Below, one piece after another: positions 30,790 to 36,072 of a DNA stretch of 36,072 bases; position 1 is the first letter of the stretch, and the number at the start of each line of letters is the position of its first letter. A program made the translations under genes and the position numbers. The notes below the pieces were generated by a model. It had not been told where the DNA came from and searched no databases. It worked only from the letters and a program-made list of their open reading frames with translations. Origin of the DNA: an uncultured archaeon (GTDB lineage Archaea; Asgardarchaeota; Thorarchaeia; Thorarchaeales; Thorarchaeaceae); contig CAZSWP010000037.1 in assembly GCA_964610875.1 (NCBI GenBank), positions 1 to 36,072 of the forward strand. Reading direction: 5' to 3'.

Positions 30790-31923
30790 CTACATCGTTT
30801 CTTTTGCTAAGGAAGTCAATCTTTTGCATCCATTAGAAGTGACCTGCAAAACATCTGATATTCTTGTAGTGCCTGCATTCTTTGAATAGCATGTTGGGTG
30901 AAGTGAAATCACCATGTCCTCACGAAGAATTACATCACTTCCAGAGGAGAGAGATGGTGGTTCCTGCAAGTCCAGACCAATTCCATTTCCAACTGGTTGG
31001 ATGAGCATTTTACAACAATCATCTCCAGCTTCAGACATAACAGAGTCCATGATTTCTCCGATGGAAGCATTAGGCGTCAGGTTTTCCTCAAGTCCATCTG
31101 CCACGGTAAGATTACACTCAAACAAAGCCCGTTGTTCTTTGTTGGGAGAGCTGGTCTGGATAGTTCGAGCCACCTCTGCAAAGTAACCGTCCTGACTGAC
31201 TGTGATATCAACGACCACAGGTTCATCGTTCGATATTCGATGCGTGCTTGGTTGTGCAAAAGGAAACTTGGCGGAAGTACCGGTAAGTATCGCAGCACGT
31301 ATTCCACGAAGTTGTCCACCAGCAGCTCTCATTGCAGATTCAATCTCGATTGAAGCTTCAACTTCTGTTTTTCCGGGGTAGACCACCTCTAGTGCTGTTC
31401 TTACGCCGATTTCAGCAATCTTTGTAGCTTCACTGATTGCTGCTATCTCAGTTGGACCTTTTATCTGTCGTAGTCGCCAGAGTTGACTGGAAAAGTCTTT
31501 GAAACCAGCATTGGGTAACGCGGTCTTGAGACGTTCAAAGTCTCTTACAGCGAGCCATTCTAGTTGCAGTCCCAGCATTCCATTCTGTATACCATCCTCC
31601 ATAATGACATCCAGTAATTTTTTCCAAAACGATTCAGAATGAGAAGGATGTCGAGAACCAGAAGCATCCTCAGAGAATTGTACAATCTTCGACATGAAAT
31701 TCTCCTTTAGAATAGCTTCATACTGGAGCTCTGAGAGAAGAAGAGTGGGTTGTTGACCAAGTGAGAGAAGACATCCTACTGGAATATCATGAAGGGGATT
31801 ATAATATCCAGTAAGATAATGGACATCCTGTGATCTTGTTACAAGAAGTGCATCAAGGTCATCACGACGCATCTTTCGATACACTTTCTCAAGTCGTTGT
31901 GGAGTAAACTGCATGACAGACAT
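30790..31923 (-). CDS. M24 (Xaa-Pro peptidase/creatinase) fold protein, metal ligands degenerate
   Basis: Creatinase-N domain (YLTGY), LRQIK..EI, GYFAEVART and GNGIGLDLQEPP motifs. Confidence 0.85.
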   Translation of the reverse strand: MSVMQFTPQRLEKVYRKMRRDDLDALLVTRSQDVHYLTGYYNPLHDIPVGCLLSLGQQPTLLLSELQYEAILKENFMSKIVQFSEDASGSRHPSHSESFWKKLLDVIMEDGIQNGMLGLQLEWLAVRDFERLKTALPNAGFKDFSSQLWRLRQIKGPTEIAAISEATKIAEIGVRTALEVVYPGKTEVEASIEIESAMRAAGGQLRGIRAAILTGTSAKFPFAQPSTHRISNDEPVVVDITVSQDGYFAEVARTIQTSSPNKEQRALFECNLTVADGLEENLTPNASIGEIMDSVMSEAGDDCCKMLIQPVGNGIGLDLQEPPSLSSGSDVILREDMVISLHPTCYSKNAGTTRISDVLQVTSNGCKRLTSLAKETM

Positions 31924-32047: not shown

Positions 32048-32096
32048 TGGCGGGACCGCCCAGATTCGAACTGGGGAAAACCGACTCCGCAGGCTG
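32048..32096 (-). tRNA. 3' half of tRNA-Arg(GCG), a fragment and probable att-site duplication
   Basis: Minus strand reads CAGC-CTGCGGA-GTCGG-TTTTC-CCCAG-TTCGAAT-CTGGG-CGGTCCC-G-CCA (anticodon loop, T arm, acceptor 3' strand, CCA). No D arm or 5' acceptor strand adjacent. Confidence 0.85.
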
Positions 32097-32123: not shown

Positions 32124-32751
32124 ATGAATTCCACAATTGAGGTTTTGTTAGTGGCGGAGGATGAAAATATAGACGTAATACATATCAATCCTAAGAACAG
32201 AGTTCTAGAATTCATCCTAGTCATTGTAAATTCATTATTTATGGCGTTCTTAGTCAATCAACTAAGTGGGATTATCGACTCAATTGGTAGGAACCAATTT
32301 AGCTATGATGCACTCTATATTGGTAATTCTGATTCACGTGAATTCAGTCCAGATACCACGAGCTATAAGAGTTAGAGATATCGGTTCAGAACACTGAAGT
32401 GGATTCAGTATTTTTGGTAAAGGTATCGATATAACAATATCATATGAAAGCGCAAGAACAGTGCTTCCAGAACAACTAGATTTGACCATAATCAACACTA
32501 ACAAAAATACAAAAAGAATAATGATTAATCAACTAGAATTAACTGCAATAGTCAAAGTAACCATTTTTGGTTTTCTCCGTTTTAGAGAAGAATTCCAGAG
32601 GCTGATAAAATGGGTAGAAAGTTTTGTCAATAAATTAATTTCGGATTACAATTGGTACAAGTTCAGAACACAGAATGGAATTACTAGTTACAGATTAATC
32701 AATATTGAACATAAATGTGCCAAGCTAGAGAGAAAACAGAATAGTGAGTGA
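32124..32751 (+). pseudogene. Possible decayed gene (two short AT-rich ORFs in different frames)
   Basis: ORFs 32124..32375 (one hydrophobic stretch) and 32461..32751. No recognisable motifs. Confidence 0.25.
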
Positions 32752-32941
32752 AATCTCCATCCAGAAATACGAATTCGTACAAATATAATACACTACTATA
32801 CCATTTGAAACACTTTTTATTGAGAGAATTGAATCGTATTTTCGGATGGTTATCTTCAGCAATTTCATCATTCTTTTTGGACCTCTCTCAGGCTTTTGAA
32901 ATAGATAGTAAATAATAGTTCCATTCATTGTAACACAAAAA

Positions 32942-33414
32942 GGCACCAGCCTGCGGATGACCTATTTCTAAATAGTGAGTGAACCTCAACTGATTGAAAC
33001 TTCTGTGTTCCACCCTTCTCTTGCCAGTGTCGCCACCACTCAGCAATCCAGAAGATATGCCAAGATTAGCAAGAACTTTGTCTGTCATCATTGAGATGGA
33101 ATCCCTCCTACAGACCGGGCTTCTTTCTCCTGTTTTAGTACTGGTTCATCACTACCAGTGACAGAGAGATTTTCCACAGTTTTTCCCACGGCAGGGTCAT
33201 CATCACCCACCCCAGCATCATCACTGAAACTGAGAAGACTCATCTGAGCATGGTGAACGGCCGCGGACTCTCCAGAATTTGATATTAATTCCTTTTCGGA
33301 GAGTAAGGACTTCCCTTGAGAAGGCTTCTTCTCTTGGGCTTTCGGTCGTGTGCTTCGTGCAATAGCACTAGCCCACTTACCTAGTCCTCTCACAGAGTGT
33401 AATGACTTTGTGAG
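32942..33414 (-). ncRNA. Candidate omegaRNA overlapping the tnpB 3' end
   Basis: Hairpins at 33389-33414, 33318-33333, 33267-33304 and 33140-33159 lie downstream of RuvC-III. T5 run at 32937-32941. Boundaries are inferred. Confidence 0.5.
32970..32993 (-). repeat. 24-bp imperfect inverted repeat, copy downstream of tnpB
   Basis: Minus strand TCAGTTGAGGTTCACTCACTATTT versus plus strand 34804-34827 TCAGTTGAGTTCACTCTCCTATTT. Confidence 0.8.
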
Positions 33415-34758
33415 CATAAGAAATCGTGCTGCGATATTGATACTACCATTTCTGTCTGCATTGGTTTTCAGCCCACAACTTGGGCAATGAAAATAGTTTT
33501 GCTTTGGTCTCTTACCCTTAGCACCACATTTCCAACATATGATAGAGGTCCATGCTTCAGGTACTGCCTTACAACGGGCATTCTTCCCATCAACCTTCCA
33601 ACCAAGCTGAGCCAGCCCATGTTTCAAACTCTCCGTTACTCGCGAATAAGCCCAAGAATGTATCATCCCTCTGAACCTGCGCGATTGGTAGTTTCCTCTC
33701 TTGGCACGTATTCGAATATTTTTCAGGCGACCAATGGCAACATAGAGTGTGTATTTTTCAGACAACTCCGATATGTAATCAAGAAGATTACGAACTAGAA
33801 CACGATCGTATTCTTTAGCAATGTTCTCTCTTTTTGACCTTATCCTGCGAAGTTTCTTTGCAACCATATCATGAAGCTGTCCGTTATTCTGTCGATTATG
33901 CATCTCTCTCTGCAGGTCCGAAAAGAGTCTGTCATATCGCTTGATGATTTTGACCTTCTCTTTTTGTATAAAGTACTTGGTCTCTCTAACTTTTTGTGGA
34001 GTAAGAAGTGTTGAACAGGCTGCTTTCTCAATCCCAAGGTCAATACCAAGAACTGCAACCGGAAGATTGGTTTCGGGCGGTTCATCGATATTGATACGGA
34101 CTGCGAAGCTGACCCACCACTTGCGTCTTTTATCAGTAAAAATCTGAAGTGCCTTTATCTCTCCGCGTTCTATTTGATTCAGATGATAGGGGGACATCTT
34201 TAGAGGAATCATCAATCGGTCATGATGTGCTCTTTGTTCCTTTGCAGAATCAAGAGCATCACGAAGGTCTATCCACCAACGGACAACAGATGTCTTTTTC
34301 TCAATGATGTTGAATCTTTGAGAGAACACCCATCGAAGAATTCGTCGAGAACTTGTGATGGTTGTAGGACGTGAAGCAGTAAAACCTCTCTTCATTCTTA
34401 GTTTGAGATAACTCTCATAGAGAGCAACAGCTGTCTGTCGACACTCAGTCATCTCATTCTGAGAGATACGAGGAAAACGGACCTTGAAATCGTGGAGCAC
34501 ACTGGTTCTCGGTTCCACACCTGACTTCACCTTGAGTGCGGTCATTGTCAGCTGGTCAACCTTACCATCACTAATTCGGTCTTTTTTCTTGCCTGTCAAC
34601 AGTTCATCTTCATGTTGTTCAATTATTCCAAGAAATGCACGTATTACTCTGGTATCTCGTCCAACAGTCTGCCTAAGCCTTTGCCTTGTCCTTTTTGTCA
34701 TGGATTCCCAGTTGATTGGAACCTTCACCGCGATTGTCACACCCTTGGACCGAGCCAT
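33088..34758 (-). CDS. tnpB: TnpB-family RNA-guided endonuclease with rearranged RuvC-II
   Basis: RuvC-I LGIDLG (D240), AIGRL (G343 at the usual Glu), VPEAWTS (E401), CWKC/CPSC zinc finger, RuvC-III NADRNGSINIA (D435). Confidence 0.92.
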   Translation of the reverse strand: MARSKGVTIAVKVPINWESMTKRTRQRLRQTVGRDTRVIRAFLGIIEQHEDELLTGKKKDRISDGKVDQLTMTALKVKSGVEPRTSVLHDFKVRFPRISQNEMTECRQTAVALYESYLKLRMKRGFTASRPTTITSSRRILRWVFSQRFNIIEKKTSVVRWWIDLRDALDSAKEQRAHHDRLMIPLKMSPYHLNQIERGEIKALQIFTDKRRKWWVSFAVRINIDEPPETNLPVAVLGIDLGIEKAACSTLLTPQKVRETKYFIQKEKVKIIKRYDRLFSDLQREMHNRQNNGQLHDMVAKKLRRIRSKRENIAKEYDRVLVRNLLDYISELSEKYTLYVAIGRLKNIRIRAKRGNYQSRRFRGMIHSWAYSRVTESLKHGLAQLGWKVDGKNARCKAVPEAWTSIICWKCGAKGKRPKQNYFHCPSCGLKTNADRNGSINIAARFLMLTKSLHSVRGLGKWASAIARSTRPKAQEKKPSQGKSLLSEKELISNSGESAAVHHAQMSLLSFSDDAGVGDDDPAVGKTVENLSVTGSDEPVLKQEKEARSVGGIPSQ

Positions 34759-34772
34759 TGTCTTTCGCCTGA

Positions 34773-34786
34773 TTCTATATAAAGTT
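34773..34786 (-). promoter_or_regulatory. TATA box of tnpB, probably a leaderless or short-leader transcript
   Basis: Minus strand AACTTTATATAGAA, with TTTATATA about 18-25 nt upstream of the ATG. Identical 14-mer at 34870-34883. Confidence 0.6.
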
Positions 34787-34803
34787 CTGACCCGTTTCTT
34801 GAG

Positions 34804-34827
34804 TCAGTTGAGTTCACTCTCCTATTT
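34804..34827 (+). repeat. 24-bp imperfect inverted repeat, copy upstream of tnpB
   Basis: Partner of 32970-32993; 22 of 25 aligned columns are identical. Confidence 0.8.
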
Positions 34828-35004
34828 GTACGTAGAGAGTCTTTTGAACTCGTATTAGAGTCATCATATTTCTATATAAAGTTATTAAGATAAAATATCA
34901 AATAATATTTTGATTTTAGTTAGATTGTTTCTAGCTCAAATATTTTCCAATAAATTAATTTAGATAAATGTTTTAAATACCCAGCAAAACAGGAGATAAT
35001 TACT

Positions 35005-36072
35005 GTGTGGGAAGTGGGAAGACCTGAGAAAGGCTATCCAAAACACCCAAACAGAATACTCTACAATGCAATCAAGACAGGACTATCTACAACGATATTG
35101 CTTCAGAGAGAGATTGTATCGAAGGCAGGTAATCATCTCTATGAAGGATCAAAAGAGAACTGGGAAAGAGCAAAGATTCAGTACAGATACTCAGTGGAAA
35201 GAGGGGACCCAGACTTCACAATACTGACGAAATCTGAGAATAACATCCGGAAAAATCTGTACAGAATTCTAGTTGAACGTGCTGCGGCGTTTGGTATCCT
35301 TGAATCCGTCCGTGTGACAAACAGATACGAGAGTCTAGGTCCACTGAATCAACGTCTTAATATTATTGGAGCTGTGCTTCGTTTCCTTGGGATGAGCCAA
35401 TATGGTTTCATAGAAATGCAACAGCTAGTCCACAATGGCGAATTGGTCAAGGGTTTTGCTGCAAATTCGTATGCACCTCAAGTCATTCCAATTCATAATC
35501 TTCCAGAACTGGACTTCATTGATTCCTGTAGGTCACCGCTTCAGACACTTGCAATGCATTGCACTATCTTTGATGTGCCGCATACTGATACCAAGAGATA
35601 TGCCAATCTTTACATGCTCAAAATGTCACCATATCTAGACTATGTGTATACAGAACACGCAATAGGAGAACCTGGACTGAACAGGAAACTGATCTCTATT
35701 CTGAGAGAACTGAAAAATGATATTGCTGACCACTTTAGTACATGCCTATACCAAAATGATACAGTCACTGGCAAACAATCGTTTCCAACTCCTAAGTTCG
35801 AGAAGGAATTCTTTGAAACGCAATTACTAGAAGCTCAGCGTGCCGGTGTGCATCCTCTAGCACTCACGGAGTTCGAACGAATATTCACAGGCGGTTCAGT
35901 AGTCACTAAGACTGATAAAATAGAAGACGGGAAGATCGAGGAACATCCAGCTCCATGCTTAGTAGAAGAAGATGTCAAGCATCTATGGTCATTAATGTCC
36001 CAGAGTAGCATACGTATGGGTTCGCATATTCATCATCGACTCTCTCGCCATCTTCCAACCTACCGCAGCATC
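35005..36072 (+). CDS. Hypothetical protein, truncated by the window end (absent from the ORF track)
   Basis: GTG at 35005 with AGGAG at 34991 and TTTAAATA at 34972. 356 codons with no stop (MWEVGRPEKGYPKHPNRILYNAIK...SIRMGSHIHHRLSRHLPTYRSI). Confidence 0.8.
   Translation, partial: MWEVGRPEKGYPKHPNRILYNAIKTGLSTTILLQREIVSKAGNHLYEGSKENWERAKIQYRYSVERGDPDFTILTKSENNIRKNLYRILVERAAAFGILESVRVTNRYESLGPLNQRLNIIGAVLRFLGMSQYGFIEMQQLVHNGELVKGFAANSYAPQVIPIHNLPELDFIDSCRSPLQTLAMHCTIFDVPHTDTKRYANLYMLKMSPYLDYVYTEHAIGEPGLNRKLISILRELKNDIADHFSTCLYQNDTVTGKQSFPTPKFEKEFFETQLLEAQRAGVHPLALTEFERIFTGGSVVTKTDKIEDGKIEEHPAPCLVEEDVKHLWSLMSQSSIRMGSHIHHRLSRHLPTYRSI

Follow-up and report, generated by a model that had tools for sequence, protein, structure and literature searches.

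Cas12 descends from TnpB, to which the eukaryotic Fanzor proteins are also related; the natural role known for TnpB is that of retaining small insertion sequences at their sites. Together with its omegaRNA, TnpB cuts the site that lacks the element, and repair then proceeds from the occupied copy (IS605-type homing). Systems of this kind (OMEGA) are reportedly encoded by insertion sequences of the IS200/IS605 and IS607 families, ISDra2 being one example, in which TnpB is said to cleave the empty site so that the element is then copied in. Guides that home on tRNA genes are carried by the CRISPR-associated Tn7-like transposons (CASTs) of types V-K and I-F3. Among the Asgard archaea, the aloposons of Heimdallarchaeia are giant-gene elements that integrate at tRNA sites; they are described as two tandem genes of 3,000–6,000 aa with an upstream ParA-like gene set, distant relatives of their giant genes occur in Thorarchaeota, and TnpB goes unmentioned in that account (Wu et al. 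2022, PMC8813620). A full-text literature search returned no account of TnpB guides derived from tRNA genes.

The window analyzed here is the entire contig C37 (36,072 nt) of the source MAG, G000, which consists of 3.75 Mb in 124 contigs and is 95% complete with 5.8% contamination. The candidate guide of its tnpB was searched for as a 16-mer in 60 genomes of the same taxonomic family, and the end of the omegaRNA scaffold was searched for as a profile in the contigs of G000 and in the genomes of relatives. The features of the locus are listed in Table 1. The explanation that we favor, at a probability of roughly 60%, is a joint one: the omegaRNA guide would be derived from the flank of the element, the island would split the native tRNA-Arg(GCG) gene, one inversion would have followed, and the TnpB-omegaRNA complex would cut the island-free allele, which would result in homing or retention of the island.

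Table 1. Features of the tnpB locus and its surroundings in the window.
Feature	Position	Strand	Description
M24 peptidase gene	30790-31923	-	adjoins the half-tRNA, as in relatives
Half-tRNA	32048..32096	-	3' part of the native tRNA-Arg(GCG), positions 28-76, with encoded CCA; upstream of the M24 peptidase gene
AT-rich inserted segment	32097..32939	.	34% GC, 843 bp, unique in the genome
T5 run	32937..32941	-	directly past the guide; first two T are tRNA-derived
Guide-bearing stub	32940..32957	+	18 nt of native tRNA-Arg(GCG), positions 21-38, sense on +; putative guide TCCGCAGGCTGGTGCC at 32957-32942 (-)
Predicted omegaRNA scaffold	32958..33400	-	130 nt of conserved non-coding DNA (32958-33087) plus the 3' ~100 codons of tnpB; ends GTTCACTCAC..ATAGGTCA
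tnpB	33088..34758	-	556 aa; RuvC-I D (GIDLG), zinc finger, and RuvC-III D (NADRN) present
Left end / 5' leader	34759..34898	-	common to the C16 paralogue; hairpin and imperfect inverted copy of the right-end GTTCACTC motif
Gene X, N-terminal part	35005..36072	+	356 aa, divergent from tnpB, cut by the contig end

The TnpB protein of the window has the RuvC-like core and the zinc finger by which members of the family are recognized. It matched PF07282 (C-terminal zinc-finger, Cas12f1-like TNB domain) with 45.9 bits against a cut-off of 26.3 and PF01385 (OrfB_IS605) with 25.5 bits, which is under the cut-off of 30.5, and solved TnpB/Cas12f structures matched it at E = 1e-9. The score against the NCBIfam model guided_TnpB (NF040570) was 92.3 bits, below the cut-off of 100, and this TnpB is a divergent member of that family. 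The canonical RuvC-II glutamate is absent; the aligned position reads LKNIRIRA, and a candidate displaced glutamate is present in VPEAWTS. The gene is intact and free of stops here and in dozens of relatives, and many truncated tnpB remnants are also found among the loci, with ~9 related tnpB copies or remnants in G000. A Y1 TnpA (PF01797) was not matched anywhere in G000, and no serine recombinase (PF00239) was found near this element type in G000, G001, G003, G005, G008, or G023. The PF00239 matches in G000 are confined to the neighborhood of distinct copies on contig C18 that combine gene X with a 731-aa TnpB. These are two copies (C18:16218-16838 and C18:60861-61253) of a second element type, which consists of an IS607-like serine recombinase, a 1,838-aa relative of gene X, and the 731-aa TnpB-like protein. 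In the 5' leader of the window's tnpB, a comparison of 34809-34868 with 32975-33000 showed the hairpin GAGTTCA...TGAACTC and an imperfect inverted copy of the right-end motif CAGTTGAGGTTCACTC; from this copy it follows that the element has subterminal inverted repeats, an unusual property for IS200/IS605.

The boundary between the omegaRNA scaffold and the guide was located by alignment. A conserved block, GGTGGAACACAGAAGT...GTTGAGGTTCACTCAC...ATAGGTCA, lies downstream of the paralogous tnpB copies in G000, and past ATAGGTCA (32958) no two copies agree. The profile of this block identified 7 strong scaffold ends in G000 and ~50 in the relatives, with a sharp boundary every time, conservation being halted right after GGTCA/GGTYA. 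The minus strand of the window reads ...AATAGGTCA, then TCCGCAGGCTGGTGCC, then TTTTT (the longer scaffold side being ...GTTCACTCACTATTTAGAAATAGGTCA), so that the scaffold ends at 32958, the 16-mer occupies 32957-32942 at a distance of 130 nt past the tnpB stop codon, and the T run occupies 32941-32937. The variable part is the next 16–18 nt (32957-32940), and because its sequence differs in every tnpB copy it can be taken as the guide; judging from these alignments, the 16-mer is the guide segment of an omegaRNA. The preliminary description, which was made from the window's sequence by itself, had drawn the boundary between 32958 and 32957 and had called for an alignment of other tnpB copies, and the conservation among paralogues and relatives ends at precisely that point.

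The overlap of the scaffold with the 3' end of tnpB, its sharp 3' boundary, and the copy-specific sequence that follows are the marks of an omegaRNA. Its 5' start, ~300 nt inside tnpB, is approximate, since it was placed where orphan units begin. The T5 run is a possible archaeal terminator. An Rfam search of the window gave no match to an omegaRNA family, and the single-sequence fold of the scaffold was no better than that of shuffled sequences (z = -0.14). Stand-alone units, consisting of the last ~100 codons of tnpB, the scaffold, and a distinct guide, are common and sometimes number several per genome (L040-L060); examples in G000 are C3:138194-138929, C25:56902-56488, and C15:45939-46044. 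Such units might serve as additional guide genes in trans, or they might be products of decay. They were also considered as miniature derivatives composed of a left end and a right end, and this was ruled out when a search for the left-end sequence found none in them.

The guide is the antisense of positions 21-38, the anticodon arm, of the native tRNA-Arg(GCG), and the tRNA-derived stretch AAGGCACCAGCCTGCGGA comprises 18 nt (32940-32957, plus strand). The exact 16-mer was found in the anticodon arm of the intact native gene in 20 of the 60 related genomes, and most of the others differ from it by 1 base. This supports the earlier proposal that the 16-mer is antisense to the anticodon arm of a tRNA-Arg(GCG) at the island's own attachment site. 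A comparison of the 16-mer with the intact gene had been suggested as the check on that proposal, and the answer was divided: the native gene of those relatives matches exactly, and the intact copy in the assembly matches at 13 of 16 positions. An imperfect pairing between CCAGC and the GTCGG of the window, which had been raised as a caveat, is accounted for by the native sequence GTTGG, which pairs with CCAGC, the window having a decayed copy.

In relatives, the native order on one strand is tRNA-Arg(CCG), ~450 nt, tRNA-Arg(GCG), ~100 nt, and the M24 peptidase gene. The half-tRNA of the window occupies the same place upstream of the M24 peptidase gene as the intact tRNA of relatives and is thus a remnant of the native gene. 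It holds the side with the putative TAM (CCGAC, native CCAAC) and the first 11 nt of the guide target. The window has two copies of this 11-mer, CAGCCTGCGGA, one at 32947-32957 (+) and one within the half-tRNA at 32086-32096 (-), and none of 100 dinucleotide shuffles gave such a match; the preliminary description had reported the same 11-nt match to the attachment-site fragment, with the same flank. Neither ARAGORN nor Rfam called a tRNA on the window. The possibility that the half-tRNA is part of a split tRNA was ruled out, as the homology passes through the anticodon loop and the synteny is that of the native gene.

A further piece of the native gene is found on another contig, where C104:441-462 corresponds to its 5' 22 nt (GGGGCCGTAGTCTAGCATGGAT) and is followed by unrelated DNA. 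This fragment ends precisely at the start of the 18-nt stub, with which it is contiguous in the native gene, and the acceptor strands of this fragment and of the half-tRNA are complementary. As reconstructed from these alignments, the native tRNA-Arg(GCG) is present once in G000, in three pieces: the 5' 22 nt (positions 1-20) on C104, the stub (21-38), and positions 28-76 in the window, with the 11 nt of CAGCCTGCGGA as the duplicated part. In 6 of the 19 related genomes examined (L093, L095, L099, L100, L103, L106), tRNA-Arg(GCG) has a D-loop intron of ~30 nt (after ...GCATGG), the site of which lies two bases past the distal end of the 18-nt target; other genomes have T-arm introns. The stub was also considered as an exon beside such a D-loop intron, and this was ruled out because the 5' fragment on C104 runs beyond the intron site and abuts the stub exactly.

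A full target for the guide is lacking in G000. The half-tRNA retains 11 nt of it. The tRNA-Arg(CCG) on C24, which lies beside a gene that is syntenic with the left side of the native locus in 5 relatives, matches the 16-mer at 15 of 16 positions, the exception being guide position 5, and is likewise flanked by CCAAC. The sole intact tRNA-Arg(GCG) of the assembly (C104:634-711, L127), referred to here as the substitute tRNA, has 3 mismatches, at guide positions 10, 11, and 13, and its anticodon stem is CTTGC rather than CCAGC. It is a different gene and not a hybrid, because its acceptor stem is incompatible with the half-tRNA. Anticodon stems of the substitute type are rare, being present in 3 of 61 genomes (G000, G052, G062), and among these three the native 16-mer with the GCG anticodon, at most 1 mismatch being allowed, is absent from G052 and G062 and is found in G000 in the stub alone. 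The substitute tRNA lies inside the inserted DNA and, together with ~40 nt upstream, is 76% identical to the host tRNA-Arg(UCG) (C3:128477-128554); it could be a recruited paralogue with an altered anticodon that replaced the destroyed native gene. In G062, a tRNA-Arg(GCG) on contig C70 (L118) occupies the native position at the M24 gene and has the native acceptor stem and a CTTGC/GCAAG anticodon stem, which is the same stem that escapes the guide of the window.

The large gene that is divergent from tnpB, gene X, accompanies this TnpB in most full-length loci of the family, in many genera. Complete copies (L066:3506-8350 and L067:1820-7336) encode 1,614 aa (C78) and 1,838 aa (C18). Gene X is cut by the ends of contigs C37 and C3, which have its N-terminal part (93.5% identity between the two), and by the ends of C104 and C47, which have its C-terminal part (94% identity). 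On C104 a tRNA-Arg(GCG), and on C47 a tRNA-Asp(GTC), follows 0.03–0.8 kb past the 3' terminus of the gene. The C37 copy has the arm of a tRNA-Arg(GCG) as its guide, and the guide of the C3 copy matches tRNA-Asp(GTC) at 17 of 17 positions. Since both the halves of gene X and the guide-matched tRNA species correspond, C37 can be joined to C104 and C3 to C47. The joins C24-C104-C37 and C3-C47 are ones that we infer rather than assembled ones, and the C-terminal part of the window's gene X would lie at C104:1475-3907. Comparisons of gene X with Pfam, NCBIfam, PADLOC, and, by phmmer, the PDB gave nothing usable, and no recognizable transposase fold was found in it. The ESM Atlas gave scores below 0.8, with weak STAND/AAA-like leads alone, and the AlphaFold model of the N-terminal 356 aa had a pLDDT of 65 and drew no match from Foldseek.

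Between the pieces of the native tRNA lies an insert of ~10 kb or more, which contains gene X, tnpB, the substitute tRNA-Arg(GCG), and the AT-rich segment of 0.84 kb, whose small ORFs (32124-32375 and 32461-32751, both on the plus strand) had no family match. With the contigs joined, the order would be native positions 1-20, 170 nt, the substitute tRNA-Arg(GCG), ~0.8 kb, gene X in antisense, tnpB with the omegaRNA, the stub (antisense, 38 to 21), the 843-bp AT-rich segment, native positions 28-76, and the M24 peptidase gene.

The history of this arrangement can be read from G052. There, the 5' half of a native-type tRNA-Arg(CCG) is complete and in antisense, and its position 38 directly adjoins the end (...GGATTA) of a related tnpB remnant; the M24 peptidase gene again has the 28-76 fragment next to it, though the flank of that fragment on the island side differs; and a tRNA that is 89% identical to the substitute on C104 is located between the remnant with its 5' half and the 28-76 fragment. 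By comparison of the two loci, G052 represents the un-inverted state, with the layout usual for TnpB: the right end adjoins the target, and the flanking DNA supplies the guide. A single later inversion would convert the G052-like order into that of G000, one of its breakpoints separating native nucleotides 22 and 23 at 18 nt from the right end, where the guide has its distal end. In the un-inverted state, 11 nt of the anticodon stem-loop are present as a direct repeat on the two sides of the insert. An alternative in which the island was captured at a TnpB break with the loss of 7 nt was given up in favor of the inversion once the G052 locus was available. The rearrangements at this locus are layered in both G000 and G052, and because the locus is rearranged, precise excision can no longer restore attB. 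On C3, a second motif resembling a scaffold end, GGACAGGTCG, occurs 53 nt past the tRNA-Asp guide (C3:148741-148797, L068) and is followed by a diverged tRNA-Asp arm, TTCGAGACTGTCAGGC, and, ~100 nt farther on, by a short remnant of the 3' end of gene X. The motif and the remnant suggest tandem or nested insertions at one site.

The association with tRNA genes is not confined to the window. In sequence comparisons across genomes, this thorarchaeal TnpB family is repeatedly positioned at tRNA genes, and its guides match the resident tRNA species, often as stubs of 14–21 nt. The tRNA species of the guide and of the island agree in G000 (Arg, Asp, Tyr, Leu), G001 (Gly), G018 (Arg), G023 (Tyr), and G007 (Leu). 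Within G000, an orphan guide on C3 is an exon of the adjoining tRNA-Tyr, and the guide on C16 is the antisense of an arm of tRNA-Leu(UAG) within a small tRNA-Leu island. The guide in G005 matches the 5' end of the tRNA beyond gene X, which ARAGORN calls Arg, yet its 14 nt equal the 5' end of the tRNA-Asp of G000. Right ends abut or lie near full tRNA-Gly(TCC) genes (G001, G006, G011, G018), the 3' half of a tRNA-Arg (G018), or short pieces of the T arm or 5' end of a tRNA (G001, G005, G016, G017, G023). A second copy of the guide was found in the tRNA beyond gene X in G005 (15 nt), G023 (16 nt), G018 (19 nt), and G001 (19 nt), and in G005, G018, and G023 this tRNA is located 0.6–0.7 kb beyond the 3' end of gene X. 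With the tRNAs of G000 alone as the reference, exact tRNA matches of at least 12 nt were present in 8 of 52 right-end flanks of relatives, compared with 3 of 139 control segments.

The lengths of these flanks are bimodal, the tRNA being either long or complete, or else a stub of 14–21 nt after which unrelated DNA follows (~9 independent stub cases). When the C16 island is compared with its counterpart in G007, the homology covers the element and the guide and then stops; the guide is identical at 14 of 15 positions and the element at 72%. Since TnpB enzymes cut 15–21 nt from the TAM, the stubs may be scars of TnpB cuts that were imprecisely repaired. The stub ends were also considered as typical tRNA-fragment ends, and this was dropped as inconsistent across cases. 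The candidate TAM at the present locus is CCAAC (native) or CCGAC (window), and the 5' flanks of six guide copies in tRNAs, from different islands, showed no common motif.

In the favored reading, the right end of the element would meet the native tRNA-Arg(GCG) in antisense at its position 38, where the anticodon loop has its 3' edge; the 16-mer is then the guide because the guide is the DNA that flanks the right end. The insert would split the native tRNA, and TnpB-omegaRNA would recognize and cut only the uninterrupted native gene, which is the island-free allele, since the half-tRNA keeps only the putative TAM and 11 nt and the full target is thus confined to the uninterrupted gene. Repair of the break from an island-bearing copy would lead to the island being copied or kept. 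By analogy with known TnpB systems, RNA-guided homing or retention of the whole island is plausible; the arrangement suggests it but is no proof, and the pattern fits a dependence of the cell on the island's substitute tRNA. Several findings weigh against such a function. The tRNA-Arg(CCG), with 15 of 16 matches and the same CCAAC flank, survives in G000, as does an intact tRNA-Asp with 17 of 17 matches to the C3 guide; with perfect and near-perfect guide matches tolerated, cleavage may not occur. In addition, the six guide copies have unrelated 5' flanks, the canonical RuvC-II glutamate is missing, and no transposase was found.

The structural part of the preliminary description was largely right. 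Its proposal that TnpB could tell the empty attB from the integrated state is upheld insofar as the half-tRNA keeps 11 nt of the target, and it is weakened by the loss of precise excision and by the coexistence of intact tRNAs with 15 of 16 and 17 of 17 matches. A special tRNA-homing spacer, of the kind that it had mentioned for some CASTs, is unnecessary, as a guide made of flanking DNA is the ordinary rule for TnpB.

The same tolerated matches would be expected if the stub were a passive relic, that is, the leftover flank of an old insertion at a rearrangement-prone tRNA hotspot, and if TnpB and its omegaRNA no longer acted on the tRNA. This is the most serious of the alternatives, though we regard it as doubtful. 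The lack of a target in G000, the layered rearrangements in G000 and G052, the many truncated tnpB remnants, and the missing transposase are all consistent with it; however, tnpB is intact in the window and in dozens of relatives, guides have been kept at 14–21 nt while the remaining flank was replaced in ~9 independent cases, and between the C16 copy and that of G007 the guide has changed less than the element. A more far-reaching form of the favored reading was also considered, in which the island behaves like a drive: TnpB would cut the native tRNA-Arg(GCG) of island-free genomes, the substitute tRNA would escape the guide, and the island would home and become indispensable, with TnpB guides more broadly serving thorarchaeal giant-gene (aloposon-like) islands in the selection or retention of tRNA sites, and the stubs being scars of cuts made at the guide-distal end. 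Taken as a whole, this combination is unlikely.

A conventional site-specific recombinase could also account for direct tRNA repeats, which would then be att cores, with tnpB as cargo beside attP and the guide match as a coincidence. Direct tRNA repeats do bracket several of the islands (Arg, 11 nt, in the pre-inversion state and in G052; Asp, 17 nt; Tyr, 16 nt; Leu, 30–36 nt; Gly, at least 19 nt), and a half-tRNA that starts from the anticodon stem is the classical form of an att site. We consider this explanation quite improbable: no integrase or recombinase was detected beside this element type, and the repeat begins exactly at the scaffold end across different tRNAs, different parts of the tRNA, and both orientations, a pattern that would not be predicted for an integrase of fixed specificity. 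Least credible is that TnpB-omegaRNA, perhaps with gene X, determines at which tRNA the island integrates, by a guide that is inherited with the element, in analogy to the tRNA-homing guides of CASTs; the guide-length stubs followed by unrelated DNA, the same Leu guide in two genera, the second guide copy in the tRNA beyond gene X (G005, G023, and the Asp island of G000), and the integration of aloposons at tRNA sites downstream of giant genes, to which no mechanism is assigned (PMC8813620), are in its favor, but the flanks in G052 and at the tRNA-Gly genes are long or complete tRNAs, which is what one would expect of a guide that is no more than flanking DNA, the guide copies vary in their distance and orientation relative to the island end, and gene X lacks a recognizable transposase fold.

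If homing and retention are taken as the function, the retention logic of TnpB appears in this locus to be tied to whole Asgard islands in tRNA genes and paired with a giant gene, and the island also bears a replacement tRNA that the guide cannot match. If active, such a system would be a natural RNA-guided drive on an essential gene, and it could explain how aloposon-like elements move between tRNA sites.

The locus resembles several described systems in part. Like the archaeal elements that a tyrosine integrase inserts at tRNA genes, it has a half-tRNA with an encoded CCA at its border and an intact tRNA of the same isoacceptor; unlike them, it has no integrase that could be found, and the intact tRNA is not a hybrid of a host 5' part and an element 3' part. 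It shares with the CASTs a guide at one end of the element that matches the tRNA gene serving as the attachment site. In contrast to CASTs, however, neither a CRISPR repeat nor Cas12k was seen near tnpB, the guide abuts the element end and is the flank itself, and the match lies inside a disrupted tRNA, whereas CASTs are located beside an intact tRNA at a fixed distance. As in aloposons, a tRNA site lies downstream of the giant gene, but here that gene is single, of 1,600–1,800 aa (1,614–1,838 aa seen), and divergent from tnpB. Gene X may be related to the giant genes of aloposons (Otus/Ephialtes).

A further similarity is to the OMEGA systems. A TnpB with a RuvC-like domain and a zinc finger, a scaffold that overlaps the 3' end of tnpB, a guide formed by the variable DNA just outside the right end, and a TAM (here putative) and full target confined to the element-free site are common to both. 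The differences are that neither a Y1 nor a serine TnpA is present in cis, and no Y1 TnpA in G000; that the 556-aa TnpB has a rearranged RuvC-II position and a constant partner gene of 1,600–1,800 aa; that the flanks are tRNA genes, often reduced to stubs of 14–21 nt; and that the unit to be copied would be an island of ~10 kb or more with its own substitute tRNA. Membership in the IS200/IS605 or IS607 families thus fails on the transposase, and the putative mechanism is of the OMEGA/TnpB kind.
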